Virus record (IMG/VR): IMGVR_UViG_3300021255_002784
Location: 88,416-152,415 of that record
Length of the DNA stretch: 64,000 bases
Source of the DNA: a virus
Lineage: Duplodnaviria > Heunggongvirae > Uroviricota > Caudoviricetes
Reading direction: 5' to 3' (one strand)
In this document: piece after piece, positions 18,174 to 61,448 of the stretch
Layout: the number at the start of each line of letters is the position of its first letter
Numbering within the stretch: position 1 is the stretch's first letter
Made by a program: the position numbers and the translations under genes
The notes under the pieces: model-generated
Told to the model about the DNA's origin: nothing
Database searches by the model: none
The model's input: the letters and a program-made list of their open reading frames with translations, nothing else

Positions 18174-18902
18174 TTAAATATCAAAATATACTATTTTACC
18201 ATCTGCACGCTCTCCGAGGTTATCTGAATGAAGATCTCCATAATCAGTAGTCTCATAACCAAGTTCATCAAGTGGTTCGCGAATAGCTCGCATAAAAGCA
18301 ACAGCTTCTTGCTGCTTACTGTTTAATTTGACTCCTTCTAACTTATTATCTTGAATCAAGTGATAGAGTGTATCATCTCCAACATCCTTGTGAAGAGTAT
18401 GAATGATATCCTGACATTTCTTGGTTCGGACTGCTAGACGCTCCATCACCACATATCCTTTACCGATGCGATAAACGCGAGGTAGTACATCGTACTTGCC
18501 AGTCTTACACAGTTCGTAGAACTTCAACAAATGAGCAGGAATGTTTCCTCGTTTGAAACACTTGATAACTTTATCGTTCACGCCATAGGCTATTCCGTCT
18601 TCGCCGACACCCAAAATTTTATCTATTTTCGAACTGGGTAATGAACATAGTTGATTATAAAGAAATCTCAACATAGTTTCATCTACATCCACGTTCATTT
18701 TGTTGAGGTCGGATATAAAATTGATAACAGTATCGTCCAGTACTTGGATGAGTTTGTAATCGCGTTTAACACCGAATCTTTTGTGGAATGCTTTTGCTAC
18801 TTTTCCTGTCCCAGCCACATTTACATAATCACAGAACTCCTCAAAAGTTATTCCAAGGTTGCCGATTGCTGCTTCTAATATGTATTCGTATAAAGATGTC
18901 AT
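18174..18902 (-). CDS. Protein kinase-like (APH/Ser-Thr fold) protein
   Basis: Gly-rich LGVGEDGIAY, VIK lysine, VVMERL hinge, catalytic GDLHSDN, terminal YFDI. Confidence 0.75.
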   Translation of the reverse strand: MTSLYEYILEAAIGNLGITFEEFCDYVNVAGTGKVAKAFHKRFGVKRDYKLIQVLDDTVINFISDLNKMNVDVDETMLRFLYNQLCSLPSSKIDKILGVGEDGIAYGVNDKVIKCFKRGNIPAHLLKFYELCKTGKYDVLPRVYRIGKGYVVMERLAVRTKKCQDIIHTLHKDVGDDTLYHLIQDNKLEGVKLNSKQQEAVAFMRAIREPLDELGYETTDYGDLHSDNLGERADGKIVYFDI

Positions 18903-28868: not shown

Positions 28869-29078
28869 ATGATCACTTCTTTCAAAGAATATATAGCTCA
28901 ACAAATGGTGGGTAAGTCCTTCCATTTTGTTTGTGATTGTGTCTTTCCGATGGACTTCGTAGGCACAATCAAAGGCTACGATGCGTCTGGTAGTGAAATC
29001 ATATTTAATGTAGAAACTGGCAACAAAATGATTAACATTGGTGAGAACCATCCCAAATTAAAAGTAACTCCAGTATGA
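28869..29078 (+). CDS. Hypothetical protein (CTS-like N-terminus MITSFKEYIAQ)
   Basis: Preceded by TTATTATATATAC. Confidence 0.55.
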   Translation: MITSFKEYIAQQMVGKSFHFVCDCVFPMDFVGTIKGYDASGSEIIFNVETGNKMINIGENHPKLKVTPV

Positions 29079-29326
29079 GAGGTCTGTACGAAAGCATATT
29101 AGATGATGAATCTACCATCCTATCCCTGTTGATTCGTTTCGCAGATGTCTCTTCACAGATAATCACAGATATTCAAAAACTTTTGAAAAAACAACGTTAT
29201 ATTTCTGATGATGAATTGAGAGCTGTATTTCCGTTGGATAATTTTACTAACATAAAGTTCATTGTTTGGAATGATGGGTCCGATGAAGGTATAGTAAAGA
29301 CACCGAAAGGATGGCACATAAAATAA
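29075..29326 (+). CDS. Hypothetical protein (MRGLYESILDDE family)
   Basis: N-terminal motif shared with the 58801-62062 cluster. Confidence 0.55.
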   Translation: MRGLYESILDDESTILSLLIRFADVSSQIITDIQKLLKKQRYISDDELRAVFPLDNFTNIKFIVWNDGSDEGIVKTPKGWHIK

Positions 29327-34664: not shown

Positions 34665-36683
34665 ATGGCTAAAACAACCAATATATATGGAGCGATGAGT
34701 GGACTGGTTGGTAAAAACATCCATTCAAAAGTAAGGATCACACACGAAAACTTGATGTCTGATGGTATGTCCGAGGAGTTCAATACTTATCGCATGTGGT
34801 CTGCGGTCAATCTGGTTACCGAGGTGGATCCTCTTACAACAGATGATTATGAAAAAGATAAAGACGGCAACTGGATAAAAAAGAACCAACGTACAGTTGC
34901 TGAGTCTACTGGTATTCGAGCCATATTCAATAAATGGCATGCTGTACCCGCTGAAAACAAATCATTCGCCTGGCGTGTATCACAAAACATGCCATTGATC
35001 GATTCACCAAAAACACGTCAGTTGCAACGCTCTATGAACTCGTGTACCGTGCGGGACTTGGTGGAAAAATCAGCAGCTGGTTTATTGGGGGCGTCTGTAT
35101 ATAGTTATTCTGACTTCATGTTCTGTAAATATCTTGGACGGGTTCCTAATAACTACCTTATTACACTACGTCGATATACTGTTCCGGTACTGGACTATAT
35201 CAAACCATATGGTAACACGTCTGCGATTACCGGAGGTAAAGAATCCACTCAGACCGATGGAGGCGGGGCTCCAATAGGCACTATGGTCACCTGGTTGGGT
35301 ACGCCTGGTAACGAGATGAAGGAGATTATGAAGTACGACATCAGCATGCCGTACAAACAGGTCAATTCCAGCTTTGAGAGCGATGGTGTACCTACTCCGC
35401 AAGTTGTGAGCAAAGATTCGCAGGGTGCCATAGGAAATGCATTCAAAAAAGCATTTAACGAAAATATAGTAAATCAACATCTTGCTAATCACATCATGCC
35501 TGGTATGTTCAATAGGCGAGGTGGACGAGCTAATCCAGAACGCGTACCATATTACGACAAGAACAAAGCCTATGCTGGTGTAGATATGGTAAAGAGCATA
35601 TACGTACGGGATGCTGAACGAGGACTCCAATTCAAGCAATCATTTAAGTTGGTGTTCGACTACGAACTTCGTTCATACGATGGAGTCAACGGCAAACAGG
35701 CTATGCTGGACCTACTTGGCAACATCCTTTCTGTTTGTTATACCAACGGCGATTTCTGGGGCGGTGCCTATCGCCATGAAGCCGGGTCCAGTAGTATGCA
35801 ACCTATGTCTTCACTCGAATGTATGCAACACCATGGAACCTTTTCTGGTTATGTCAATGCATTCACCAGAGACTTTCAAAAGATCCGGGGCCGTGTAGCA
35901 AGTATGACGAAGAATCCATTGGAGACCCTGAAGACCTTGCTTAATGATTTAGGAGGTGCTCTTCTCGGTGGAGACATGAACATGGCACCTATCCAATATA
36001 AAACTGGTGTCAACTCGTTGTTATCAGATACTGCAGTAGGTCTTTGGCACGTAACCGTGGGTAATCCTTGTGCTCCTATGATGAGTATCGGTAACCTTAT
36101 ACTTACCAACACAACCATAGAGCATTACGGACCGCTTGGTATAGATGATTTTCCAACAGGACTTCGAGTAACATGCACATTTGACACTGGCAAACCTCGC
36201 GATAAGCGTTTGATTGAACGTATATACAACGGAGGTAATGACCGGATCTATTCACCACTGGATCAGTCTATACTGGACTCTCTTAATAATGCTCCTGATG
36301 TTCATAGTTATGACAAGGCAAATACTGATGCAAACGGCAACGCATCGCATGTCGTCACTACTACAGGCGCCAATACGATAGATGATGTCAGGAACGGTAC
36401 TACTGGCGGGCGATCTATTCAATCCCAAGTAGTTATGTCTGCGGAACTTTCAAAGCGAGATGAAGAGGCCAAATCAATGGCTAGTAGATTGATCCCGAAC
36501 ATAGAAATGTCCGTGTCTGGTTATCATAATAAAAACCTTGGTGCTGTATCCACTTTGCGTACCGCGGATATGGTAAAGAAGTATTTTGGTACGGCAGGTC
36601 AATACGCCATCAATGTAACTTCAGGTGAAATGAACGAAGGGTTTGCTGCACCTACAACAGATCCTAATGCTGGTAAAATATAA
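34665..36683 (+). CDS. Hypothetical structural protein, possibly tail-tube-initiator-like
   Basis: SFKLVFDYELRS...WHVTVGNP...GNLILTNTTIEH...FPTGLRVT is tube-fold-like. Confidence 0.35.
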   Translation: MAKTTNIYGAMSGLVGKNIHSKVRITHENLMSDGMSEEFNTYRMWSAVNLVTEVDPLTTDDYEKDKDGNWIKKNQRTVAESTGIRAIFNKWHAVPAENKSFAWRVSQNMPLIDSPKTRQLQRSMNSCTVRDLVEKSAAGLLGASVYSYSDFMFCKYLGRVPNNYLITLRRYTVPVLDYIKPYGNTSAITGGKESTQTDGGGAPIGTMVTWLGTPGNEMKEIMKYDISMPYKQVNSSFESDGVPTPQVVSKDSQGAIGNAFKKAFNENIVNQHLANHIMPGMFNRRGGRANPERVPYYDKNKAYAGVDMVKSIYVRDAERGLQFKQSFKLVFDYELRSYDGVNGKQAMLDLLGNILSVCYTNGDFWGGAYRHEAGSSSMQPMSSLECMQHHGTFSGYVNAFTRDFQKIRGRVASMTKNPLETLKTLLNDLGGALLGGDMNMAPIQYKTGVNSLLSDTAVGLWHVTVGNPCAPMMSIGNLILTNTTIEHYGPLGIDDFPTGLRVTCTFDTGKPRDKRLIERIYNGGNDRIYSPLDQSILDSLNNAPDVHSYDKANTDANGNASHVVTTTGANTIDDVRNGTTGGRSIQSQVVMSAELSKRDEEAKSMASRLIPNIEMSVSGYHNKNLGAVSTLRTADMVKKYFGTAGQYAINVTSGEMNEGFAAPTTDPNAGKI

Positions 36684-37138
36684 TGTCACATGATATAAAA
36701 CAGTTGAAGCCTAGTGCCAATTCGAGATATAGGCAAGGCTACATTGATCCGGGAAGCTGTAAAAAACTCTTCCCGGATCTTGTTAAGGATAGCATCATAT
36801 ACAGAAGTAGTTATGAGCAAAAGTTTATCTACTGGTGCGAAAACAACCCCAAGGTCAAGCATTGGGGGTCTGAATGTATGTCCATCAAATATATATCCAT
36901 GATCGATAAAAAAGAGCATACTTACTATCCAGATTATGTAGTAGAGATGGAGAACGGAGAGAAGTGGGTGGTGGAAATCAAACCCTATTCACAAACACAG
37001 CGCCCAGTTGTTGAAAACGGGTGGTTATGGAACGCCTACACTACAAACATGTCTAAATGGGTCGCAGCCAAGCAGTTCTGTGATGCGCGTGGGCTTAAAT
37101 TCAAGATACTTACCGAACGCACTATCGAGTTGTTATAA
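36683..37138 (+). CDS. Head completion nuclease, T4 gp4-like (TnsA-type)
   Basis: YRSSYEQKF..WCE.NP.V..WGSE...YYPDY...EIKP...KWVAAKQFC...FKILTE. Confidence 0.9.
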   Translation: MSHDIKQLKPSANSRYRQGYIDPGSCKKLFPDLVKDSIIYRSSYEQKFIYWCENNPKVKHWGSECMSIKYISMIDKKEHTYYPDYVVEMENGEKWVVEIKPYSQTQRPVVENGWLWNAYTTNMSKWVAAKQFCDARGLKFKILTERTIELL

Positions 37139-37154
37139 TGTTATTATATAGTAT

Positions 37155-37427
37155 ATGAATAACAAAGGATTTCTATATTCAGCACACTGTGAAAAAGGCG
37201 TACCTAGTTCCAAAAGATTTTGGGGTGGTATAGGCTTTGCAATATGTCAGTTATGCATCATCGCTGCTACAGTATTGTCGTTCATTCATACAGGCGAATT
37301 ATCCGGCACTGTTTCCAGTCTGATCGATTTCGACTTAGGTATCAGCGCAACATTATTAGGACTTTCTACTATCACTCGGATGTTTCAAGATAAAACATCC
37401 ATAGGTAAAACAGAATTTGATAAATAA
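37155..37427 (+). CDS. Small two-TM membrane protein (holin-like)
   Basis: SSKRFWGGIGF..., two hydrophobic helices, charged C-terminus. Confidence 0.45.
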   Translation: MNNKGFLYSAHCEKGVPSSKRFWGGIGFAICQLCIIAATVLSFIHTGELSGTVSSLIDFDLGISATLLGLSTITRMFQDKTSIGKTEFDK

Positions 37428-37441
37428 ATACTCGAACATAC

Positions 37442-37966
37442 ATGCCAACATATTTAGAAAATATATTAACCGGCATCAAGACTTGGGTAACAAGTAAGCT
37501 AGAAGATATATCTTATATCACAGCCAGCCATCTTAATTCGTTGCATGAAAGCATCGAAAATATCGAATCCATACTTGCTAATGAGTTCGAAGAATCCGAT
37601 TATTCCGAACGTGCATTATATACGACTCAAGAAGTAGAAGGAGACATAATGGCTACAGGCAAGATAATCAAACACGGAAGCAAGGTGTCCTTGTTTATTA
37701 AGAATGCAAACACGGTGAATGGGAGCCAAGATGTGTACTACGTTTTACCTTATGCTCCTGATACTGAATATGTAAATCTTGTAAACAATAGTGGGTTGTA
37801 CGAATATCTCGGAATACAATTCAAGGTAGAGATAACGACTCAAACCATCGACAATGTAATATATGATGTCATCAAGTTAAACAGATACGTCAATGGCAAT
37901 ATAACCAACTGGGATGCTGACCAATCAATAGCGTTCAGTTTAGTTTATGTTGCTGAAAACGTGTAA
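37442..37966 (+). CDS. Fibre-associated protein
   Basis: N-terminus (NILTGIKTWVTSKLEDISY) paralogous to that of 38001. Confidence 0.45.
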   Translation: MPTYLENILTGIKTWVTSKLEDISYITASHLNSLHESIENIESILANEFEESDYSERALYTTQEVEGDIMATGKIIKHGSKVSLFIKNANTVNGSQDVYYVLPYAPDTEYVNLVNNSGLYEYLGIQFKVEITTQTIDNVIYDVIKLNRYVNGNITNWDADQSIAFSLVYVAENV

Positions 37967-38000
37967 GTTTATCGGGTGCAGAATAAAATAACAATCATAT

Positions 38001-38840
38001 ATGATAGCAGAACAATTTATCCAGAACATTCTCATTGGTGTTCGTAGATGGACTAATGGTAAACTTGAAGAAATTTCTTATGTAGTATCCAGTCACATCA
38101 ACGAACTGACAGATAAAGTAAGCGCATTAACCGGTCGTGTAACAACAACCGAGACCAAACTTAATGGGATCGAAGCCGGAGCACAAGTTAACGTTATTGA
38201 GACTATCCAAGTGAATGGTACTACGGTTTCACCAACAGGAAAAGTAGTAGATATTACCATCCCCGCAGCAACGGTGACCGGTGTTAAATCTGGTGAGAAC
38301 ATTTTAGGATTGGATGGTACCGAGCTTACCTCTACCTTGACATTGAACTACGATTCTTCTAGTTCCAAGATTCAACTCAAAGGTAAGGAAGGCGCACTCG
38401 TAAGTGAGATCGATGCTACAGACTTCATCAAAGATGGTATGCTCGATTCCGCAAGCGTCCACACTCGTAAGACAACTTCTAGCACAGCAAACTGGACGCC
38501 GACTCTTCCATCCGGTGTAACCGAACCTACTGGGTGGACTGAGTCTAATGACGGTACCTATATCGTTCTTGTTTGGAACACTGATTCAGGCAAGTCAACG
38601 ACTTTCGTAAATGCAACTTCGCTCATTGACGTATATACAGCAGGTACGGGTTTGACTCTCAATGATCATGAGTTCTCACTCAATGTTGCTGGTTCTAGTG
38701 CAATCGGTGGAGTTAAGGTGGATAGTGCATCCACATCCGGCTTGTCTCTCGGATCTGATGGTTCGTTGAGTATAGCAGCTCCTGAGGTAGCAGATATTAT
38801 TGCATTTCTAAACAACGATGGTTCAGATCCTGTAGCGTAA
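38001..38840 (+). CDS. Tail-fibre-like protein
   Basis: KLNGIEAGAQVNVIETIQVNG, FIKDGML, YTAGTGL, GGVKV motifs typical of fibre proteins. Confidence 0.6.
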   Translation: MIAEQFIQNILIGVRRWTNGKLEEISYVVSSHINELTDKVSALTGRVTTTETKLNGIEAGAQVNVIETIQVNGTTVSPTGKVVDITIPAATVTGVKSGENILGLDGTELTSTLTLNYDSSSSKIQLKGKEGALVSEIDATDFIKDGMLDSASVHTRKTTSSTANWTPTLPSGVTEPTGWTESNDGTYIVLVWNTDSGKSTTFVNATSLIDVYTAGTGLTLNDHEFSLNVAGSSAIGGVKVDSASTSGLSLGSDGSLSIAAPEVADIIAFLNNDGSDPVA

Positions 38841-38874
38841 GTACAGGATTTGATAGTATAAAAAACTATCTAAC

Positions 38875-39621
38875 ATGAAAGAGTATATTAAAAAATTTGC
38901 TAATGCTTCTGATGGTGACAACTATTTAATTGAGAATATTCCTTTTATGACATCTGTAGAAGCATCTGGTCAAAACCTTGTTTGCAACCAATCTGGTAAG
39001 AAGCTGGTGAATGTATCTGGGATACTCCAAATTCAATCAGCTGGACCAGAAATGGTTGATCTTGGCTTATCTGTTAAGTGGGCTGCAAACAATGTTGGTG
39101 CGAATCCAGGTTCAACTCCAGAATCTTACTATGGTGATTACTATGCTTGGGGTGAGACGAAAACTAAATATGACAAGGAATATTCGTGGGAGACTTATGC
39201 ATTCGGTTCATCATCTCCATTTAGTAAGTATGACTCGGATGGTAAAATAGTATTGGAATCAGTAGATGATGTAGCTGCTCAAGTCTATGGTTCTGATTAC
39301 CGCATGCCTACTGCCACAGAAATTCAAGAGCTGATTGATGGAACAAGTAAAGTATGGGTAACTGACTATAATGGCATATCCGGTTTGAATGGATGCAAGT
39401 TCATGAAGAAATCCGATCATTCTGTATTCATATTCATCCCAGCTGCCGGCAACTATAGTTCTTCTGTCGTTGATGCCGGTAATTACGGCTACGTTTGGTC
39501 TTCATCTCTCAATTCGGACGATCCCAACTACTCTCGGATACTCAACTTCGATAGCAAAGGAATCTTCGCATTATACGACGATCGTTACTACGGTCTACCA
39601 GTTCGTGCAGTAGAAGTTTAA
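38875..39621 (+). CDS. Adhesin-like protein with DLGLSVKWA domain (DUF1566/FISUMP-like)
   Basis: VDLGLSVKWAANNVGA...YGDYYAWGET...RMPTATEIQEL...IFIPAAG...GLPVRAV. Confidence 0.75.
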   Translation: MKEYIKKFANASDGDNYLIENIPFMTSVEASGQNLVCNQSGKKLVNVSGILQIQSAGPEMVDLGLSVKWAANNVGANPGSTPESYYGDYYAWGETKTKYDKEYSWETYAFGSSSPFSKYDSDGKIVLESVDDVAAQVYGSDYRMPTATEIQELIDGTSKVWVTDYNGISGLNGCKFMKKSDHSVFIFIPAAGNYSSSVVDAGNYGYVWSSSLNSDDPNYSRILNFDSKGIFALYDDRYYGLPVRAVEV

Positions 39622-39664
39622 GTCTTTGAGAACGACGATAGTACAAAAAAGTTATTTAATATAC

Positions 39665-41242
39665 ATGAAAGAATATTTGAAAAAATTCGATTCTGCTACC
39701 GCCGCAGATAATTACCATATAGTAGATATTCCGTTTGCTACTTCGGTTGCTGAAAACCCTATTCAGAACTTGGTTTGTAACCAGACTGGTAAAAAACTTG
39801 TGAACGTATTCGGAATAGTGCAAATTCAATCAGCAGGTCCGGCACCCGATGAGATTTGGTACACAAGTTCAGACGGAAATATTGTGTCACCACAGTCAAC
39901 AAGCGCGCTTCCAACTATAGTTTCAAATACATATGTTGATGGTAAAGGTGCAATTAAATTTGCAACAGATGTCACAAGCATTGGAACTAATGCTTTCTCT
40001 GGTCGCAGTAGTTTGGCCTCTATAACGATTCCTGATAGTGCAACAAGCATTGAAGATTATGCCTTCAATAATTGCACTAGTTTGACATCAGCGACGATTC
40101 CAGATAGTGTAACCAGCATTGGAAATTGGTCTTTCCATGGTTGTAGCAGTTTAACCACTATGACAATTCCTGATAGTGTAACCAGCATTGGAAATGAGAC
40201 TTTCTCTGGTTGCACTAGTTTGACATCAGTAACGATTGGTAATAGAGTAACCAGTATTGGAGATAGTGCTTTCCAATATTGCACTAGTTTGACATCAGCG
40301 ACGATTCCAGATAGTGTAACCAGCATTGGAATACAAGCTTTCTCTGGTTGTAGTAGTTTAACCACTATGACAATTCCTGATAGTGTAACAAGCATTGGAA
40401 ATAGTGCTTTCTCTGGTTGTAGCAGTTTAACCACTATGACAATTCCTGATAGTGTAACAATCATCGGAGATGGCATTTTCGAAAATTGTACAGGTTTAAC
40501 ATCTGTAATGATTCCTAATAGCGTAACAAGCATTGGAATCTCTGCTTTTTATGGGTGCACCGGTTTGACCTCTGTACATATATCTGATATAGCAGCTTGG
40601 TGTGCTATCGGATTTATACATTCATCATCCAATCCATTAACATCAACCAATTCAACTAATCTATATTTGAATGAAACGTTAGTTACCGATTTGGTTATTC
40701 CTAATAGCGTCACCAGCATTGGAAATTATGCTTTCTATAATTACGCCAACTTGACATCGGTGACGATTGGTAACAGCGTAACAAGCATTGGAAATGAGAC
40801 TTTCTCTGGTTGTAGTAGCTTGACATCTATAACGATTCCTAATAACGTTATAAGTATTGGAACACAAACTTTTTATGGTTGCACCGGTTTGACATCAGTG
40901 ACTATTGGTAATAGCGTAACAAACATTGGAAGTAGTGCTTTCGGATCAATTTTAGCAAAAATAATATTTAGTAAATTATATTCAACATATACTAATAAAA
41001 TATTCGTGGCACCATCAACAAATGATGCATCATACACATATAATATTGAATTTAATATTTCCGAAATTCCAGCCGATTACAATATTTCAACAATGTTGCC
41101 ACAAGTAGCTAATGATGGAAAAGGTACAATAACATATAACATATATACAGATTATGCGCCTTGTAAAGATCAGGCACTTGCACTTGTTACCACAAAAACA
41201 ATAGTAAATGTTTATCACATTGATGGCACACCTTGGGAATGA
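39665..41242 (+). CDS. BspA-type leucine-rich repeat (LRR_5) protein
   Basis: More than 10 copies of CTSLTSVTIPDSVTSIGxxAF; N-terminus shared with 38875. Confidence 0.9.
   Translation: MKEYLKKFDSATAADNYHIVDIPFATSVAENPIQNLVCNQTGKKLVNVFGIVQIQSAGPAPDEIWYTSSDGNIVSPQSTSALPTIVSNTYVDGKGAIKFATDVTSIGTNAFSGRSSLASITIPDSATSIEDYAFNNCTSLTSATIPDSVTSIGNWSFHGCSSLTTMTIPDSVTSIGNETFSGCTSLTSVTIGNRVTSIGDSAFQYCTSLTSATIPDSVTSIGIQAFSGCSSLTTMTIPDSVTSIGNSAFSGCSSLTTMTIPDSVTIIGDGIFENCTGLTSVMIPNSVTSIGISAFYGCTGLTSVHISDIAAWCAIGFIHSSSNPLTSTNSTNLYLNETLVTDLVIPNSVTSIGNYAFYNYANLTSVTIGNSVTSIGNETFSGCSSLTSITIPNNVISIGTQTFYGCTGLTSVTIGNSVTNIGSSAFGSILAKIIFSKLYSTYTNKIFVAPSTNDASYTYNIEFNISEIPADYNISTMLPQVANDGKGTITYNIYTDYAPCKDQALALVTTKTIVNVYHIDGTPWE
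39973..40950 (+). repeat. 69-bp (23-aa) tandem LRR-coding repeats
   Basis: Near-identical DNA units, e.g. at 40073 and 40280 (207 bp apart). Confidence 0.85.
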
Positions 41243-41266
41243 TAAAAAATTAAATCGTAGAATAAT

Positions 41267-41827
41267 ATGAAAAAAGTAACACTGAAATACTTCAATAAAA
41301 ATTTGCGCAGCATATTTAATTTAGAAACTCCTAAAGCCTACTATTGTGTTCACGAACAAACAGAAGTAAATACCGGCATGCAAGATGATTGCGACATGCA
41401 ATATTGCGAAGAACACAGTATTCCAGTTTATTTAATGGAACGTTCTGGTGGAACTATTGTATGTTCTAAAGGCAATATCGGAATTTCTGTAATTACACCA
41501 GTCAAATGGGGTTGGCAAACAAGTGCGTTCATGACCTCTCTGGCTGAGTATTTACAAAATAAAGGTCTTGATGCAAGATATGCTGGTAATGATGTTCTTA
41601 TTGACGGATTCAAAGTAGCATCTAGTGCAGAGATTCGAGTTGGAGATAATTTGAAGAATGTTTATAGTACCTATCAAATATCCATCAATCAAGATATTGA
41701 GGCAATTGAACATATCTGCAAAAAAGAAATGATTAAAATTCCAAAAGCTCTTTCAGATTATGGAATAACAACAGAAGAAATTGTCAATTTCTGTAAAGAT
41801 TATTGGAATAAAATTATTGAAAACTGA
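41267..41827 (+). CDS. Lipoate-protein ligase (BPL/LplA/LipB) family catalytic domain
   Basis: YLMERSGGTIVCSKGNI (RxxGGGxV-like) and GNDVLIDGFKVASSA (NDxxxxGxKxxG-like). Confidence 0.7.
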   Translation: MKKVTLKYFNKNLRSIFNLETPKAYYCVHEQTEVNTGMQDDCDMQYCEEHSIPVYLMERSGGTIVCSKGNIGISVITPVKWGWQTSAFMTSLAEYLQNKGLDARYAGNDVLIDGFKVASSAEIRVGDNLKNVYSTYQISINQDIEAIEHICKKEMIKIPKALSDYGITTEEIVNFCKDYWNKIIEN

Positions 41828-41883
41828 TGCAAAAATATGAAGGAATATTTGAAAAAATTTGATTCTACAATAAAATTCAATTC

Positions 41884-41941
41884 TAACAAAAGATCTTTTT
41901 TGAACAATATAATTATTCATCACAAACGAGATCTCTCATTA
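41884..41941. repeat. Degenerate AGATCT-core inverted repeat
   Basis: TAACAAAAGATCTTTTTTG...CAAACGAGATCTCTCATTA at a convergent junction. Confidence 0.5.
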
Positions 41942-41959
41942 GAATTGAAATAAACAATA

Positions 41960-41991
41960 AAAAAACCTCTTCGTTAGCGAAGAGGTTTTTT
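41960..41991. terminator. Bidirectional intrinsic terminator
   Basis: AAAAAACCTCTTCG-TTAG-CGAAGAGGTTTTTT. Confidence 0.9.
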
Positions 41992-42319
41992 AATCTTCCT
42001 GATTAAGCAAATCGATAACATCTTCTACAGATACCTCGGGGTTAGGACCAACAGGGCCTTGTGGTCCTTGTTCTCCTCGTGGACCTTGTGGACCGGTCTC
42101 TCCCGGATCGCCTTTATCTCCTTTTGGACCTTGTATTGAAGATAGTTCAACAGTTTTATTTATGACCGGTGCCGGTACACCATCTACTTTGACAGCTTCG
42201 ATGATGTTTTTATCTCCCAAATTCTCGTGATTGTATTGAATATTGTCGATGAGTTGATTGACATGAACGTCTTCGAACAACTCACCGTTGGTCATGTGAT
42301 TCATTGGTACGTAAGCCAT
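41990..42319 (-). CDS. Collagen-like repeat protein
   Basis: [29 protein letters not shown]; C-terminus resembles that of 38001-38840. Confidence 0.75.
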
Positions 42320-42333
42320 AATATCGATCTTTT

Positions 42334-43503
42334 TTATTGTTTAATCTCATCAAATGTATTATTCGCGAAAAATTTTTTAATCATAGGTATATCTTTTAGT
42401 TGTTTGAGACCAACATTCCATTTCAATATATCGTCTCTCATCTTATCATCCATATCATCAACTAAAAGGTAACCCGCAAAGTAATCCCCATCATCACCAA
42501 CACCGCCTAGTAATCTGGTATCTATATTTTCCCTTTTTGCCCGGGCTATGGCCTTAAATATAATTTTGCGCGAGGGTTTGTTCTTAAGATCTAAATTATC
42601 GATAAACTTAAACAAATCGTAAAAATCCAAACGATACTTTTGGTATGATATAACATATTTAAGAGATATGTTAAACATAACATTCGGTTTAGCAACATTT
42701 ACTAGGTTTATAGAGTTCCATACCGCCAAGCCTTCGTCTAGTAAATTACGACCACGCAATCCGTGGACAAATAGATATAGCCCTGTTTTATATCCCCACC
42801 ATCTACGGCCAACATGCCCTTTGATTTCATGGGCGATGAGTCCTTCAATATCCGCTTTACTGAATAATGCGGTTTTACATATACGAATTGTATTGTTTGG
42901 CAACACATTCATACGAGCCAACATATCAGGTTCTATAGCTACTTTCCAATTGTTATACTTAAGTTCTTTTAGTGCATTTTCTAACATCACTTTGGCTTCT
43001 TCTGCAGTAATGTTGCGATCAAGATTATCAGTCGATTCAAATTTGGAAGATTTAAGCACTTCTAAAGCCTTTATATACGTCTCGGAGCTGAGGTGGGATT
43101 GGTCCCAAGCTCTATCTATACCAGCTTTACGATCTATGTAGAACTGACACCATTCAATTGTTCTATTGATATTATCAATATAGTATTTTGATAAAGGACA
43201 TGAATCGAAATCTATAAATTTCCTCAAAAGCTTATTTGATTTCTCAATAATTCCGTCAGTGTCATATTTACATTCACCCAATTCCAAAACTGGATAATAT
43301 TTCTCACCTTTATCATAGGCACTGAAGAATTTGTCGGCTTCTTCATCTAGATTATGTACATCTTTCTCATTAAAATCGTCTCTACGTAACATAATTAGCT
43401 CGTTATACTCACGATCTAGAGCAATAAGCTTTTTGTGATCATTTAGGGACATCTTTTGAGAAAATGAAAAATCGTCATGTAAATATTGAGCAAGACTAAT
43501 CAT
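42334..43503 (-). CDS. DUF1704/QEGLA (MATCAP-like) zinc carboxypeptidase, paralog 2
   Basis: LIAHEIKGH (HExxxH)...LDEGLA...DYFAGY. Confidence 0.75.
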   Translation of the reverse strand: MISLAQYLHDDFSFSQKMSLNDHKKLIALDREYNELIMLRRDDFNEKDVHNLDEEADKFFSAYDKGEKYYPVLELGECKYDTDGIIEKSNKLLRKFIDFDSCPLSKYYIDNINRTIEWCQFYIDRKAGIDRAWDQSHLSSETYIKALEVLKSSKFESTDNLDRNITAEEAKVMLENALKELKYNNWKVAIEPDMLARMNVLPNNTIRICKTALFSKADIEGLIAHEIKGHVGRRWWGYKTGLYLFVHGLRGRNLLDEGLAVWNSINLVNVAKPNVMFNISLKYVISYQKYRLDFYDLFKFIDNLDLKNKPSRKIIFKAIARAKRENIDTRLLGGVGDDGDYFAGYLLVDDMDDKMRDDILKWNVGLKQLKDIPMIKKFFANNTFDEIKQ

Positions 43504-44704
43504 TCTGTTTTGATGGTTTTATTGGAGGAAACTTATTAACCTTTATAAATTTTTGAAGCGTATCAAGTTCATACAATTGATCCGGACCTATCGGGAGAAG
43601 AAGAAGTTGTTCCCTTTCTTCTTCTGTCATATTTTTAACCCTTATATAACCATCAAGATAATCTTCATCGGTCGAATAATTACCTAATGGGGTATATATA
43701 TAGATACGCGAAGCCCTAACTATAGCCAATGCTATGCGTTTGTCTTCTATATTAGTCAATTCCTTGATTTTTTTATACGCGTCGACTATATTAGTTTTAT
43801 GCATTTCGTATAGTAGGATTATCTTAATACATATGAAGAACAGTATGTTTGGCTTAGGTTTATCCACTTTATTTAATGAATTATATATAGCTAAACCTTC
43901 ATCATATACATTATTGCCTTTGAGACCATGTATAAACAAATATAATCCTGCTTGAAGTGCGTGGAATTTGCGTGCTACATGGACAGCAATCTCATGGACT
44001 TTGAGAGATTCGATATCTACTTTACTAAACTTATTATGTCCATTGATACGAAACTCTTGATAAGGACGTACACTCATTCGTGGCACCATATTGTTGTCTA
44101 TGACGACGTCCCACCCATATCCATGTTTATCTATTTCTTTTTGAAGAATTTTTTTCGACTCCTCCGGCGAAATAGTTTGTTCATAGTCTTTATCTTTTTT
44201 GGCTAATTCTTTAACATCGACAAATTTGTTCTCTTTAATTAGCTTCATGGCAATATCATATAATCTGCGCGATGGATGATTAGAAACCTCCCCTCTATAT
44301 GAAGGGTCCTTGGTGAATCTATTTAGGAACATTATTTGCTCAATAATCTTATTGATTCGATATATATAGAATTTTGTGACATAACAATTAAGTTCTATAA
44401 AATCTAGTTTAAGATTGTTAATCTTCTTAATAAAATCATCACACCACTTATCATCAGCTATATTGCTCTTCTCATATTTGATATCAACTTGATATTTTTT
44501 ATCATTAGTTCGTATAGCTTTCAGAACACCATCGATGGCCTCCTCCATATTCGTAACATTTGCAAAATGAATATGCTCTTTCTCAAACTCATCAGCTAAA
44601 TCATTGAACTCCTTATCTAGTTTAATAAGGAGCTCCCTATCTTTTTGAGTTAATTTTAGCTGATTATCAAATGATTCATATAGATATTGTGTTAATGATT
44701 TCAT
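43496..44704 (-). CDS. DUF1704/QEGLA (MATCAP-like) zinc carboxypeptidase, paralog 1
   Basis: LKVHEIAVH (HExxxH)...YDEGLA...DYLDGY. Confidence 0.75.
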   Translation of the reverse strand: MKSLTQYLYESFDNQLKLTQKDRELLIKLDKEFNDLADEFEKEHIHFANVTNMEEAIDGVLKAIRTNDKKYQVDIKYEKSNIADDKWCDDFIKKINNLKLDFIELNCYVTKFYIYRINKIIEQIMFLNRFTKDPSYRGEVSNHPSRRLYDIAMKLIKENKFVDVKELAKKDKDYEQTISPEESKKILQKEIDKHGYGWDVVIDNNMVPRMSVRPYQEFRINGHNKFSKVDIESLKVHEIAVHVARKFHALQAGLYLFIHGLKGNNVYDEGLAIYNSLNKVDKPKPNILFFICIKIILLYEMHKTNIVDAYKKIKELTNIEDKRIALAIVRASRIYIYTPLGNYSTDEDYLDGYIRVKNMTEEEREQLLLLPIGPDQLYELDTLQKFIKVNKFPPIKPSKQND

Positions 44705-44711
44705 AATAAAA

Positions 44712-46334
44712 TTAGATAATCTTTACTTTCTCCATTTCCGGAGTAAGAATATGTGATTGATCGGGATGAACAACATATCCCAGTTTTGACAAAGTATCTC
44801 GGTTAATCAAACAATTCGTAGTCTTATTACTACGCGATTTAACAATACTGATTGGGACTTTGGCAATCTTACGAAGACCAAGTGTTAACTCTGGAAGAAT
44901 AATAACTGGACGTTTGTACTGTTGTTCACCAGCATTAACAATAGATTCGGTATTCTTTTCGAAGCTGAGCTTTTTACCACCTAAGCTGAATGTGATCTTG
45001 CCGTCAGCTTCCGTGAAATCTCCAACCTCGAGACAACAAGCATTAGTAGAGTTGCCAGTATCCAGTTTGGCCAAGAATTCTTTTTGGAATCCGTCTCCGA
45101 AATCAATAGTAACGGATTCGATGTATCCAGCAATCTTATCCTGAAGCATGAATTGATTTGGATCGTCTAACTCATTAAGTAGCAAGTTGATAAAGTTCTC
45201 ATCCATAACATCAGATATACCAGCTGTGCCCGGAGAGGCGTTGATTTCGAGAACTACATTGTCACCTATTTTTGGATTACTGCCTTTGACCAATGGCATG
45301 ATATCCACGGCGCACCATGGAAGGTGAGATAGCTGTGCTGTCTTGAGTGCGATCTGTTCCTGTTCGGGTGTCAATTCTACCGGTTCAGCTTCAGCACCGA
45401 GTGATACATTTGAACGGAAATCTCCACCCAGTTTAACCCGTTTCATCTTGGCCAGAATGACCTGTTTGTCACGCAATGTAAGCACATGGACCCGGATATC
45501 CCCACCATCAGCTTCCTCCTTTTTCTGAATGATGAGCCGACGCTCGGGATCGATAGCGAATATCATTTGGAAGATGGCCAGGATCTTTTTACCGTCCACC
45601 ATTGCTACACCGGTACCCCCATGACCGTCTAATATCTTGATTACGAACATCAGTTTCTCGTTGTTGTCCGGGTTCTTTGGGTCCCATTCCGGATACACAG
45701 TCTTCATGGCCTTGTTGTACTGTTTCTCGTCGTAGAGGATGTCTTTGGTCATGAGGGTGAAGTTCGGTTGAGGAATGTCACCTTTTTGGAACAGTACAGC
45801 AGACTCGTATTTATCACAAGCCAAGGCACTGTACTTGACTGGGTTCAGTACTAAGAATCCGCGATCCTGAAGTAACTGAACTATGTGTTCACACTGATCC
45901 TCTCCTTGCACCCCAAGACGAGCAAAAATGAGTGTGTCCAAGTTAGACTCACCTTTAAGCACGAACTCCTCGTCTCCATCAGTAATCTTGATCTCTTCTT
46001 CTCGTTCATCAGCCTCCATTTCTGCTGCCACAAAAATATGCAGTTCCGGAATGATAGGGCACTTATCCTTTTTGAGGTTTTCAATAGCATCGTAAATGTT
46101 CTTCAGGGTTTTGTTACCCTTCGGATCACGGTCGTTAGTAAAGATGATGATGTGTTTGAAAATGTTGGTATATGTTTTGATCTTATCAGCATAATGAACG
46201 TCGAAGTGTTCGGCATTGGGATTAAGAGTCTTTTTGGATACATCTTTCTTATCATCTTTGGCTTCATTGATAGGACGTTTCAGAATCCCGTTTATGTACA
46301 GGTCATTGACCTCGTTAATGTTTCTGTAGTTCAT
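44712..46334 (-). CDS. rimK: RimK-like ATP-grasp ligase fused to RimB-like (DTG) retropepsin-type protease
   Basis: ACDK, VIKILDGHGGTGV, GGDIRV, DFRSNVSLG, AVD, VLEINASPG; C-terminal AKLDTGN...KRPVI...CLINRDTL. Confidence 0.85.
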   Translation of the reverse strand: MNYRNINEVNDLYINGILKRPINEAKDDKKDVSKKTLNPNAEHFDVHYADKIKTYTNIFKHIIIFTNDRDPKGNKTLKNIYDAIENLKKDKCPIIPELHIFVAAEMEADEREEEIKITDGDEEFVLKGESNLDTLIFARLGVQGEDQCEHIVQLLQDRGFLVLNPVKYSALACDKYESAVLFQKGDIPQPNFTLMTKDILYDEKQYNKAMKTVYPEWDPKNPDNNEKLMFVIKILDGHGGTGVAMVDGKKILAIFQMIFAIDPERRLIIQKKEEADGGDIRVHVLTLRDKQVILAKMKRVKLGGDFRSNVSLGAEAEPVELTPEQEQIALKTAQLSHLPWCAVDIMPLVKGSNPKIGDNVVLEINASPGTAGISDVMDENFINLLLNELDDPNQFMLQDKIAGYIESVTIDFGDGFQKEFLAKLDTGNSTNACCLEVGDFTEADGKITFSLGGKKLSFEKNTESIVNAGEQQYKRPVIILPELTLGLRKIAKVPISIVKSRSNKTTNCLINRDTLSKLGYVVHPDQSHILTPEMEKVKII

Positions 46335-48830: not shown

Positions 48831-48866
48831 AAATAAAGGAGACTCGTGATGAGCCTCCTTTTATTT
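48831..48866. terminator. Bidirectional intrinsic terminator
   Basis: AAATAAAGGAGACTC-GTGAT-GAGCCTCCTTTTATTT. Confidence 0.75.
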
Positions 48867-49051
48867 TATTCTTCTTCTCCTGCTTTCTTAGATTTCTTCT
48901 TACGATGTGGATGTTCTTTTTTTGCTTTAGCGGTTAGGGGTTCGGTCCCTTTTCCATCCCCATCATCAGCAGTTGGATTACCCATACCGGTCGTATTACC
49001 AGGAGTGGCGCAGTTACCATTCTCTTCTATGTAGTCAAATAGGTTTTTCAT
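48866..49051 (-). CDS. Small conserved-type phage protein (ATPGNTTGMGNP motif)
   Basis: MKNLFDYIEE CTS-like start; basic tail. Confidence 0.55.
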   Translation of the reverse strand: MKNLFDYIEENGNCATPGNTTGMGNPTADDGDGKGTEPLTAKAKKEHPHRKKKSKKAGEEE

Positions 49052-58800: not shown

Positions 58801-59247
58801 TCAAGATTTTTTATTATACCAGATAGTTATTTCCAAAGTATCTTCCGGGTCGCCAGTAGGCTTGGTTATCTTGTATGTTGTAAATTTACTGCTCCATTTG
58901 TTCTCATTTTTATCGTCCAAAGAGATGACGAATCGAGCTTTGAGGAATCCTCGGAGTAACACCAGAATGTTTTGTTCGAATCCAATGTACGGAACATTAA
59001 GGATGATAGTCGGTAGTTCGCTTATGTCGATGTCATTAAGAGAGAATCTTTTTTCTGGTTTGAGACCATTTTTCTTACAATAGTTTTTGATATCGTTCCA
59101 CTTAAAGTATCTCGCAAGTTGCACTTCAGTATAAGCATCGTTACCCATAGTTATACTCGAAATATCATAAACGTCCTTCAGACGTTTCATGGACTGGTTT
59201 GTTATGGTCTCTTCATCATCTAATATGGATTCGTACAACGATTTCAT
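58801..59247 (-). CDS. Hypothetical protein (MKSLYESILDDEE family)
   Basis: TAATG-coupled; shared N-terminal motif. Confidence 0.6.
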   Translation of the reverse strand: MKSLYESILDDEETITNQSMKRLKDVYDISSITMGNDAYTEVQLARYFKWNDIKNYCKKNGLKPEKRFSLNDIDISELPTIILNVPYIGFEQNILVLLRGFLKARFVISLDDKNENKWSSKFTTYKITKPTGDPEDTLEITIWYNKKS

Positions 59248-60303: not shown

Positions 60304-60849
60304 TTAGTAGATTGCATTTTGTTTTTTGACACCTGGGCAAGCCTTGTGTATATCTTTCCATTCGAACTCTTTGCCACAGTTATCCACTTTGAATAACTTA
60401 TTTGCTTTTTTCGGACATCCGTTCAGTGATGTGAGCTTTGGACAATTGATCACAGAGAATGTCTCCACTTCTTCTGGTAGTTTAGGTAACTCTTCCAAGT
60501 TAGGACAACCAGATATCATCACTATTTGAGCACGAAATGGAACGATTCGTTGTGGAATGGTTTTACCATCATATCCTTTGATGAACAAACGGTAGCAATA
60601 CATGATGGCAGGAATCACTTCAGGAATACTGCGTTCTGTGTCTTTCTTGGTTAAATATATCTCACCAAGATTATCCTCTAGACCGTGTTGACCTTCCGGG
60701 TCATCTTTAGTACCAACATAATGACGATTCTTGAAACCATGATCCCATAGCCAACCATAACCAGCTTCCTCTTTGACCTTATCATTTTGTTCGATTCTAC
60801 CTATGATATCTTCCTCGTCGTCTAATATGCTTTCGAATAAGTCTTTCAT
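60304..60849 (-). CDS. Hypothetical protein with short leucine-rich repeats (MKDLFESILDDEED)
   Basis: CPNLEELPKLP...CPKLTSLNGCPKK. Confidence 0.6.
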   Translation of the reverse strand: MKDLFESILDDEEDIIGRIEQNDKVKEEAGYGWLWDHGFKNRHYVGTKDDPEGQHGLEDNLGEIYLTKKDTERSIPEVIPAIMYCYRLFIKGYDGKTIPQRIVPFRAQIVMISGCPNLEELPKLPEEVETFSVINCPKLTSLNGCPKKANKLFKVDNCGKEFEWKDIHKACPGVKKQNAIY

Positions 60850-61448
60850 AATAGTTCTTTTTTTATATGGCGAAAATCATATATCCTATATTTACCTCCA
60901 ATTTCGGATTTCAAAACACCCCAACTCGATATTTTTATTTTTTCTGTCACAATATAATCTTCAAAGTGTTCATCTAAAACATCTATTATGGATTTGGTTT
61001 CAGGAATGTCTAAGGCGTATATAGCCGTTTCATGCAACTCCAATATATGTTCTGTAAGTGTATCAAGCGAGCGCCCCGTCACATAATCTATACTGATGTT
61101 ATAATAGCCGAATCGCGGGTCTGAAAATGTCGTTCCATAATCCTCTACATTTTGATCGGCCAACCTGCGGATTCCATATTTGGACCCAAATTTAGCGTCA
61201 GGAGGTAACTTTTTCTTGAGTTTGTTGACTATCTTTTTCACATCATCTTTAACCAGACGCAATTTGTTATCTTCTAAAAAGGTCTGCATAGGAACTTCGG
61301 TGCTCCATTTCGCCTGAAATATCCCATCGAGCATGGGTTTCATTTTTTGAAGTATCTCTTTAGCCTTCAAAAATATTGCCCCCTTCTTATCAACACTTTT
61401 TAATATGTCGTCTTCCGTGTCTAATATACTTTCGTATAATGATTTCAT
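60846..61448 (-). CDS. Hypothetical protein, tandem paralog B (MKSLYESILDTEDD)
   Basis: Aligns end-to-end with 61445-62062. Confidence 0.65.
   Translation of the reverse strand: MKSLYESILDTEDDILKSVDKKGAIFLKAKEILQKMKPMLDGIFQAKWSTEVPMQTFLEDNKLRLVKDDVKKIVNKLKKKLPPDAKFGSKYGIRRLADQNVEDYGTTFSDPRFGYYNISIDYVTGRSLDTLTEHILELHETAIYALDIPETKSIIDVLDEHFEDYIVTEKIKISSWGVLKSEIGGKYRIYDFRHIKKELL

Follow-up and report, generated by a model that had tools for sequence, protein, structure and literature searches.

A phage RimK-family ligase fused to a retropepsin-like domain, with an optional pair of MATCAP-like peptidases: a candidate system for editing protein C-termini

The enzymes considered here all have counterparts that are known already: RimK, RimB, the RimBK hybrid, the Rlo system, the MATCAP/TMCP enzymes and a putative phage rimK joined to a PF05618 domain. 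We describe a locus at which three genes of these kinds lie side by side, on a stretch of 64,000 nucleotides (the window; bases 88416-152415 of the complete 197,528-bp IMG/VR phage genome IMGVR_UViG_3300021255_002784, which has direct terminal repeats). The genes are that for a RimK-family ATP-grasp ligase with a C-terminal retropepsin-like domain (LIG) and those for two paralogous MATCAP/DUF1704 peptidases (PEP1 and PEP2). Our leading explanation, with a probability of about 0.45, is that the three form an optional, extended tail-editing system of the RimK/RimB type in a T4-like phage with a presumed gut/rumen Bacteroidales host. L and P numbers below denote loci and proteins of relatives, and G000 the whole genome.

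RimK polyglutamylates a C-terminus with alpha-linked glutamates; RimB, which has D31 of its DTG motif as a catalytic residue, cleaves polyglutamate tails and also stimulates RimK, and a natural RimB-RimK hybrid is active (PMC11957791). The RimABK system of Pseudomonas and the RimBK hybrids of Desulfotalea/Flavobacteriales (Little et al. 2025, PMC11957791; Grenga et al. 2020, PMC7343187) resemble LIG in combining a RimK-type ligase with a PF05618 DTG domain. As in LIG, both domains of the hybrid stand in one polypeptide, but RimB is N-terminal there, and the order is reversed in LIG. Compared to RimABK, LIG is phage-encoded, has no RimA (c-di-GMP phosphodiesterase) partner, carries an extra N-terminal leader, scores under the RimK equivalog and rimK_fam cut-offs, and has two MATCAP-type genes attached to it in some lineages. 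The rloABC system of Pseudomonas aeruginosa (Lormand et al. 2025, PMC12239564) likewise links a polyGlu-cleaving retropepsin-like peptidase to an ATP-grasp ligase. RloA proteins cut Glu-rich sequences (PMC12239564), and RloA-type structures (9g59, 9g58) match the C-terminal domain of LIG. However, RloA is a secreted, separate protein, and LIG has no match to the RloC-type NCBIfam model. A counterpart of RloB, a transglutaminase-like membrane protein, was not found in the operon, to which this comparison was confined.

Among phages, a putative rimK with a C-terminal DUF785/PF05618 domain was reported from marine T4-like contigs in 2008 (Monier, Claverie and Ogata; PMC2530865). This gene and its counterparts in Pelagibacter phage Mosig and Yersinia phage YerA41 have the two-domain architecture of LIG and a similar neighbourhood (replication/early genes, regA). 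LIG aligns with the Mosig (aa 134-540) and YerA41 (aa 134-524) proteins, but the identity is only 25-28%, and no MATCAP match was found there (50,697 phage records searched). A survey of jumbo phages describes R2K-type ATP-grasp peptide ligases and RNA ligases, with no mention of RimK-type or MATCAP proteins (PMC7824862). A first-pass annotation of the window, made from the letters alone, had stated that no phage system with this combination was described; we also found none with the MATCAP pairing in the literature searched, but the RimK::PF05618 fusion has been in print since 2008 (PMC2530865).

The closest known counterparts of the peptidases are human MATCAP1/TMCP1 (KIAA0895L) and TMCP2 (KIAA0895), tubulin tail carboxypeptidases/deglutamylases (7z5g; PMC10499314) that share PF08014, the HExxxH motif and the Glu of EGLA with PEP1 and PEP2. 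These enzymes remove C-terminal Tyr/Glu and also deglutamylate, and the E281A change of TMCP1 (the Glu of HExxxH) abolishes activity (PMC10499314). The phage peptidases differ from them in their low identity (∼16%), an extra N-terminal helical region, a leader resembling the capsid-targeting sequence (CTS) of phage T4 and their occurrence as tandem paralogues; moreover, the host of the phage has no tubulin. Our literature search returned no paper on the function of phage or prokaryotic DUF1704/MATCAP proteins. To our knowledge, MATCAP/TMCP enzymes have been known only as eukaryotic tubulin-tail editors, with no role assigned to prokaryotic or viral relatives.

Domains of the ligase and the peptidases

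LIG was matched by the Pfam RimK family (PF08443) on aa 174-379 with 72.9 bits (cut-off 21; 3.3e-20). TIGR00768 (rimK_fam) aligned with aa 108-381 and did not reach its cut-off (85.8 vs 143.4 bits), nor did PRK10446, the S6--L-glutamate ligase equivalog (49.8 vs 331 bits). The best NCBIfam scores were tied between the cofactor ligase MptN (86.2 bits) and rimK_fam, all of them far under the cut-offs. Scoring under these cut-offs and equally with MptN, LIG is placed in the RimK superfamily without being an equivalog, and its amino acid and acceptor can therefore only be inferred.

The solved structures nearest to LIG in sequence are Pseudomonas and E. coli RimK. The AF2 model (pLDDT 88.6) gave the same picture with Foldseek: the top 20 matches were all RimK (best 7qys; E 7e-17, target-normalised TM 0.85 over ∼332 columns), and LysX/ArgX and the ATP-grasp enzymes of ribosomally synthesised and post-translationally modified peptides ranked behind RimK in the PDB. 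This search with the whole of LIG listed only ATP-grasp matches and none for the C-terminal domain. In an alignment of 35 family members, with identity down to 23%, the ATP-grasp Lys, the Gly-rich loop, the Arg/Asn of the DFRSN motif and the Mg ligands were invariant (in LIG K233, the G237/G240/G242 loop, D279, R281, R307, N309, D344, E363 and N365). The N-terminal ∼50 residues showed little conservation and low model confidence, and a Pfam search with the N-terminal 125 aa alone returned nothing usable at E up to 10. LIG is thus, by sequence and fold, a RimK-family ATP-grasp ligase with its catalytic residues intact.

The tie with MptN bears on a decidedly unlikely alternative: the product of the ligase would be free poly-alpha-glutamate, or else a glutamylated small molecule, cofactor or nucleotide-derived compound, which the peptidases would then recycle. 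RimK and RimB do make free poly-alpha-L-glutamate (PMC11957791), in YerA41, whose thymidine is hypermodified, the homologue has nucleotide-metabolism genes around it (PMC9023294), and a cytidylyltransferase-ligase fusion exists. On the other hand, the LIG fold is closest to RimK, ahead of LysX/ArgX, the operon has no cofactor or base-modification pathway genes, and characterised enzymes of the MATCAP family work on protein C-termini (PMC10499314).

The C-terminal 162 aa of LIG alone had no Pfam match, also with the E limit raised to 10. A profile of the domain family, however, matched PF05618 structures in the PDB end to end (2pma, 7e-12; 9g59, 2.3e-11; 9g58, 1.5e-9), and the AKLDTGN of the family was aligned with the AKLDTGA of the solved PF05618 proteins. 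PF05618 was also matched individually by 21 of 36 domain family members, and is carried by 8 of 10 distant full-length relatives aligning across both LIG domains. Within the DTG motif of LIG (D425-T426-G427-N428) the Asp is kept in 34 and the full DTG in 33 of 35 family members. The last ∼150 residues are predicted to form an all-beta fold, and the order RimK then PF05618 is found in LIG and all 35 aligned relatives. We concluded that the C-terminal part of LIG is a RimB/RloA-type, PF05618 retropepsin-like domain of intact appearance.

PEP1 and PEP2 are 36% identical to each other. Both exceeded the cut-off (27 bits) of the Pfam MATCAP family PF08014 (PEP1, 58.0 bits, 1e-15; PEP2, 46.7 bits, 2.8e-12), and neither met the 338.65-bit cut-off of TIGR02421, the QEGLA-motif protein equivalog (65.6 bits, 4.5e-18, and 45.2 bits, respectively). 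When PEP1 alone was compared with the PDB by phmmer, only chance matches were obtained and a family profile was needed; the 24-sequence peptidase profile matched human MATCAP 7z5g at 2.8e-11, with HEIGTH and EEGLA in register. HExxxH and DEGLA, the latter being the third zinc-ligand region (aa 268-272 in PEP1), were invariant in the 24 aligned proteins and in 22 of 22 further phage homologues. The five best Foldseek PDB matches of the PEP1 model (AF2, pLDDT 92) were MATCAP (E 1.6e-4, TM 0.42-0.50). In the VIA comparison MATCAP 7z5g was at the top (Z 16.6, rmsd 4.0 Å, 267 residues), effectively tied with DUF885 (Z 16.1), and M32 carboxypeptidases followed at ∼11. PEP1 and PEP2 are therefore predicted zinc carboxypeptidases of the MATCAP/DUF1704 family, with their motifs intact. 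The first-pass annotation had named an ATP-grasp ligase with RimK motifs, a DTG-motif protease domain fused to it and two paralogous HExxxH...EGLA metallopeptidases related to MATCAP, and each of these assignments holds: RimK is best by sequence and fold, PF05618 is recovered by profile with a conserved DTG, and PF08014, the profile and the PEP1 fold agree.

If these proteins form one tail-editing system, LIG would, at the expense of ATP, attach alpha-linked glutamate or some similar residue to the free C-terminal carboxylate of a protein or, alternatively, would grow free poly-alpha-glutamate. Its retropepsin domain, as a dimer, could cut within acidic tails, with a possible stimulation of the ligase like that of RimK by RimB. 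The MATCAP-like pair would remove C-terminal residues singly, and so either make the tails shorter or uncover an acidic acceptor end by taking off a terminal residue that blocks it. The ligase would function without the peptidases, and the pair would set or reset tail length in some lineages; PEP1 and PEP2, if injected, could act before the ligase is made. Since the ligase has its own polyGlu-type endopeptidase domain, the MATCAP genes would be an optional extra rather than the eraser. Of the reversible tail-editing module proposed earlier, the domains are right and the chemistry is coherent, but the peptidases are optional and the ligase usually occurs alone.

Linkage of the ligase and peptidase genes

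LIG, PEP1, PEP2 and a following collagen-like gene look like a single transcription unit (Table 1). A spacer of 7 nt lies between LIG and PEP1, the start of PEP2 overlaps the end of PEP1 by 8 nt, and PEP2 is followed after 14 nt by the fourth gene; a terminator hairpin begins at the last base of the stop codon of the latter, and no terminator of comparable strength was found inside the unit. The three minus-strand genes are therefore open reading frames (ORFs) as tightly coupled as had been noted at first. The order exonuclease, LIG-PEP1-PEP2, with tight junctions (1-9 nt gaps), recurs in the contig of P0012, where PEP1 is 69% identical, and in L112 (ligase 69%, PEP1 70%, PEP2 52%, flanking exonuclease 51%). 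A sister strain probably carries the trio too, as the longest contigs of its PEP1 (98%) and ligase (95%) clusters have the same length (25,601 bp). In at least three lineages the peptidase pair is found immediately behind the ligase. In an unrelated jumbo phage, L111, a peptidase gene is separated by one DUF6734 gene from a gene for a RimK-like protein of 586 aa, with another ligase subfamily and gene order. L111 is JBGVNW010000068.1, a 360-kb contig of a metagenome-assembled genome (MAG) of fecal 'Bacilli'. It also holds a split family-B DNA polymerase, an Mre11-like phosphoesterase and a DNA methylase, and looks like a jumbo phage genome that was binned into a bacterial MAG.

At the genome level, exactly one RimK-family gene was observed in all 7 of the 7 peptidase-bearing IMG/VR records at least 56% complete, as well as one in the present phage, compared with 9 of 17 large phages selected by their exonuclease. 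The three peptidase-bearing records with no RimK match are each a 15-20% fragment. Megablast of the 4-kb region and tblastn of PEP1 gave no match in 50,697 phage records, and a scan of genome contigs gave three loci at ∼33-42% identity, at least one of which (L111) is clearly phage DNA in a MAG. In the ligase tree the present phage and L008 are sisters (100/100) and L112 branches elsewhere, with the backbone not resolved; this separation requires at least two gain or loss events of the cassette.

Several observations weigh against a functional link. Among the exonuclease-selected phages, the ligase was confined to closer relatives (9/11, vs 0/6 distant ones). As the ligase is near-universal in the close clade (9/11 records, with both negatives incomplete), the genome-level co-occurrence is partly a clade effect. 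Adjacency is exceptional (4 of ∼21 peptidase contexts), and in most of the peptidase-bearing (jumbo) phages the peptidase and ligase genes are 60-230 kb apart. L008, the nearest relative (ligase 87%, exonuclease 90%, single-stranded DNA-binding protein (SSB) 93%), has no peptidases, its ligase being followed directly by a collagen-like gene, and L033, L009, L011 and L029 also have the ligase and no peptidases. Conversely, the PEP1-PEP2 pair of L006 (181 kb) adjoins a DNA polymerase gene, with no ligase within 6 kb. None of the large-phage records selected by ligase (34) or by exonuclease (17) has PF08014, and the 10 unusually long ligase homologues examined include no fusion of ligase and MATCAP. 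The GC content at third codon positions is 0.29 for PEP1 and 0.31 for PEP2, as against 0.46 for LIG and 0.46-0.54 for other core genes. Injected peptidases and a later-expressed ligase may also never meet the same molecule. Finally, position alone could explain the neighbourhood, since the low-GC island in which the pair lies also holds unrelated accessory genes.

This island extends over ∼36683-44704, from the ligase to a gene for a TnsA-like endonuclease. It is variable, and its contents differ in every relative; they comprise the peptidase pair, collagen-like genes (109 or 373 aa), a gene resembling that for lipoate-protein ligase A (LplA), a leucine-rich repeat protein and small ORFs. Among the large ORFs, the GC of PEP1 and PEP2 is lower by 2.8 and 2.1 sd, respectively, and in the low-GC relative L112 the composition of the peptidase genes matches the surroundings. 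Our reading is that PEP1-PEP2 is a cassette from a lower-GC relative that landed at the edge of the variable island after the ligase.

The same observations bear on a somewhat unlikely alternative: the peptidases are independent effectors, packaged and injected, that serve host takeover or counter-defence by trimming some host protein at its C-terminus, and their adjacency to the ligase reflects an accessory hot spot. Most phage homologues lie far from a ligase, and in L005 one of the neighbours is a gene for an Alt-like ADP-ribosyltransferase. What lies between the ligase and the TnsA-like gene varies in L008, L009, L011 and L112, the peptidases are compositionally foreign in the present genome, and the ligase family is mostly found without them. 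In addition, CTS-like N-termini and a gp21-type protease would suit such effectors (PMC9026906), as would the T4 internal proteins, injected counterers of defence that share the CTS only (PMC3012670). In contrast, the pair stays at the 3' end of the ligase (1-9 nt gaps) where the other island content differs, L111 provides a second, independent near-adjacency, and no sufficiently complete peptidase-bearing phage tested is without a RimK-type gene. We concluded that the ligase-peptidase pairing is real yet optional, the peptidase pair being a rare accessory cassette. The first-pass annotation had proposed co-occurrence in relatives as a check: the trio is indeed present at the same site in L112 and in the P0012 contig, but the peptidases are absent from L008, L033, L009, L011 and L029. 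If the coupling in a tail-editing system is true, the pairing of ligase and trimmer known from the tubulin code has a counterpart in bacterial viruses. The system would be tractable, having small genes, natural plus and minus variants (the present phage vs L008-like phages) and a candidate Glu-tailed substrate.

Two of the loci mentioned above deserve further description. The polymerase gene beside the PEP1-PEP2 pair of L006 (L006:8609-11938) is of family B and contains an intein-splicing domain. In L005, a 91-kb relative, a single MATCAP-like gene is divergent to a 560-aa gene and the Alt-like, ADP-ribosyltransferase-toxin-like gene (L005:3644-5909).

The ligase itself is far more widespread. 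The ligase::PF05618 fusion was found in at least 588 IMG/VR loci; it is common in large phages and near-core in the present T4-like clade, and usually occurs alone, without peptidases. The phages that carry the family span the hosts SAR11, Yersinia, cyanobacteria and rumen Bacteroidales, and two further, distant two-domain ligases are in T4-like phage contexts with no MATCAP. The fusion of RimK and RimB-like domains is thus among the commoner uncharacterised enzymes of large phages, and its substrate would fill a gap in what is understood of host takeover. Some LIG homologues have extra domains (proteins P0316, P0253, P0216, P0285, P0177, P0180 and P0232): an Exotoxin-A/PARP-like ADP-ribosyltransferase, an Acb1 anti-CBASS phosphodiesterase (two proteins), a cytidylyltransferase, a tandem second RimK, or ∼760 aa of sequence with no assignment. 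The fusions to ADP-ribosyltransferase, Acb1-type and cytidylyltransferase domains suggest, as a hint only, that the ligase family works in host takeover or counter-defence.

Packaging of the peptidases and possible acceptors

In T4, the CTS comprises ten residues, of which positions 4 and 7 serve targeting and positions 8 and 10 processing by gp21, which cuts after L/I-X-E; an Asp at position 10 permits targeting and blocks cleavage (PMC9026906). The T4 internal proteins are a diverse injected set that counters host defence, and the CTS is their sole common feature (PMC3012670). Both peptidases had been noted at first as starting with a CTS-like motif, and they do so (MKSLTQYLYE in PEP1, MISLAQYLHD in PEP2). 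The PEP1 leader (L4, Y7, L8-Y-E10) fits the T4 rule for targeting and for processing, and all PEP1 orthologues retain [ILV]-x-E at the aligned positions; the PEP2 leader has D at position 10. Such a pattern opens 20 of 610 ORFs of the genome compared to ∼4 expected (estimated from internal methionines). These ORFs belong to unrelated families and most have the fuller MK(S/T/N/D)L form. A gp21-type prohead protease is also encoded (PF03420, 35.7 bits, over the cut-off; G000:184069-184398). Given the CTS-like N-termini and this protease, PEP1 and PEP2 are probably loaded into the head and injected. The likeness to the T4 internal proteins and Alt (PMC9026906, PMC3012670) thus extends to the type of ten-residue leader, the gp21-type protease and the many unrelated leader bearers; the cargo here, however, would be metallopeptidases, which T4 is not known to package. 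Injection of the peptidases, if it occurs, would add a new class to the effectors delivered by capsids.

Further starts of the form M-K-x-L-x-x-[YS]-[IL]-x-[ED] in the window are those of 18174-18902, 29075-29326, 58801-59247 and 60304-61448. A subgroup of the CTS-like starts reads MKSLYESILDDE, with the Asp at position 10 that in T4 means targeting without cleavage.

Processing or packaging of the ligase was considered and dropped. The INE sites that the first-pass annotation pointed out in its leader exist, but they are not conserved (orthologues have ISN, IKS and others), and LIG has no CTS leader. The YerA41 homologue, a middle gene, was detected in particles along with polymerases and helicases, which is weak evidence (PMC7354516).

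The acceptor proposed at first was the host ribosomal protein bS6. That bS6, together with bS18 and bS21, sequesters the anti-Shine-Dalgarno sequence in Bacteroidia is correct (PMC7797042, PMC9976891). We nevertheless found no support for the target and regard as very improbable the alternative that the module edits the bS6 C-terminus and thereby reprograms the ribosome platform of Bacteroidota. The sole established protein substrate of RimK is bS6/RpsF (PMC7343187, PMC11957791), PHROG and GenBank label phage homologues as S6 modification enzymes, and the C-terminal extension of bS6 contacts the last 16S nucleotides in Bacteroidia, where editing could matter (PMC7797042, PMC9976891). However, the RimK paradigm was set on a Glu-ended tail, and the C-terminus of Bacteroidetes bS6 is a helix specific to the phylum, with Trp, Arg and Lys residues that bind to the 3' end of the 16S RNA, rather than a Glu tail (PMC7797042). 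The score of LIG against the RimK equivalog, given above, also argues against it, as does the presence of the same ligase family in phages of SAR11, Yersinia and cyanobacteria.

A candidate acceptor encoded by the phage, and a better lead than bS6, is a protein of 61 aa. Only five ORFs of the genome end in Glu-Glu, and one of them is this ORF, which lies on the ligase strand, 2.5 kb upstream of the ligase. The protein has a CTS-like leader, a conserved core (TPGNTxGMGNP...SEPL) and a variable basic run before the C-terminus, and homologues lie near the ligase in nine loci. An EEE or EEEE end was observed in 15 of 16 close family members, and the exception (P0328) appears to stem from a frameshift that reads through the Lys/Glu-coding run. 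Distant members (in L112, which has the trio, and in L035, L036 and L038) end otherwise, without EEE. As the distant members, including that of the trio-bearing L112, end differently, the role of the EEE protein as acceptor stays hypothetical, and we consider it improbable that LIG lengthens this encoded Glu primer while the retropepsin domain and PEP1/PEP2 trim it, so as to fix the charge of an internal, DNA-associated protein destined for packaging and injection. If true, the editing of the EEE protein would be a viral counterpart, on an ejection protein, of the tubulin glutamylation/deglutamylation code.

Gene layout and neighbouring features

Table 1. Positions of the LIG-PEP1-PEP2 unit, of its parts and of related features (window coordinates unless a locus is named)
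Feature	Coordinates	Strand	Basis or remark
Whole unit, LIG-PEP1-PEP2-collagen-like gene	41990-46334	-	Closed by a strong terminator
LIG, 540 aa, RimK-family ATP-grasp ligase with C-terminal retropepsin-like domain	44712..46334	-	
ATP-grasp (RimK-like) catalytic region of LIG, ∼aa 60-390	45165..46157	-	Pfam, TIGR00768, Foldseek
PF05618 (RimB/RloA-type) retropepsin-like domain of LIG, aa 392-540	44715..45161	-	Family profile vs PDB
PEP1, 402 aa, predicted MATCAP/DUF1704 zinc carboxypeptidase	43496..44704	-	N-terminus MKSLTQYLYE, then S
PEP1 HExxxH zinc-binding/catalytic motif, H237-E238-x3-H242	43979..43996	-	Invariant alignment columns
PEP2, 389 aa, paralogue of PEP1	42334..43503	-	HEIKGH and DEGLA intact; N-terminus MISLAQYLHD
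Fourth gene, 109-aa collagen-repeat protein	41990..42319	-	Pfam Collagen and PHROG tail-fibre matches
Intrinsic terminator hairpin, 14-bp stem and T-run	41960..41991	-	Ends the unit
61-aa basic protein	48866..49051	-	CTS-like N-terminus, C-terminal EEE; tentative candidate acceptor of LIG
Counterparts of the variable island in relatives	L008:6639-11375, L009:6639-7634, L112:6001-10217		
Homologues of the 61-aa protein	L008:2275-2463, L009:1988-2161, L011:1143-1316, L033:2023-2214, L112:1392-1568, L035:7874-8047		

The unit is flanked by T4-like replication genes (a 5'-3' exonuclease, a gp32-like SSB and a helicase-like gene). The Pfam and PHROG matches of the 109-aa ORF come via its Gly-X-Y repeats; tblastn matched both of its ends to the 373-aa gene that stands directly after the ligase in L008, of which it is a shortened form.

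A protein of 186 aa, encoded on the plus strand at 41267-41827, matches only the catalytic domain of lipoate-protein ligase A/B (PF21948, 9e-14). It is kept in L008 (86% identity), and a phage-borne ligase fragment of this lipoyl/biotinyl type is unusual.

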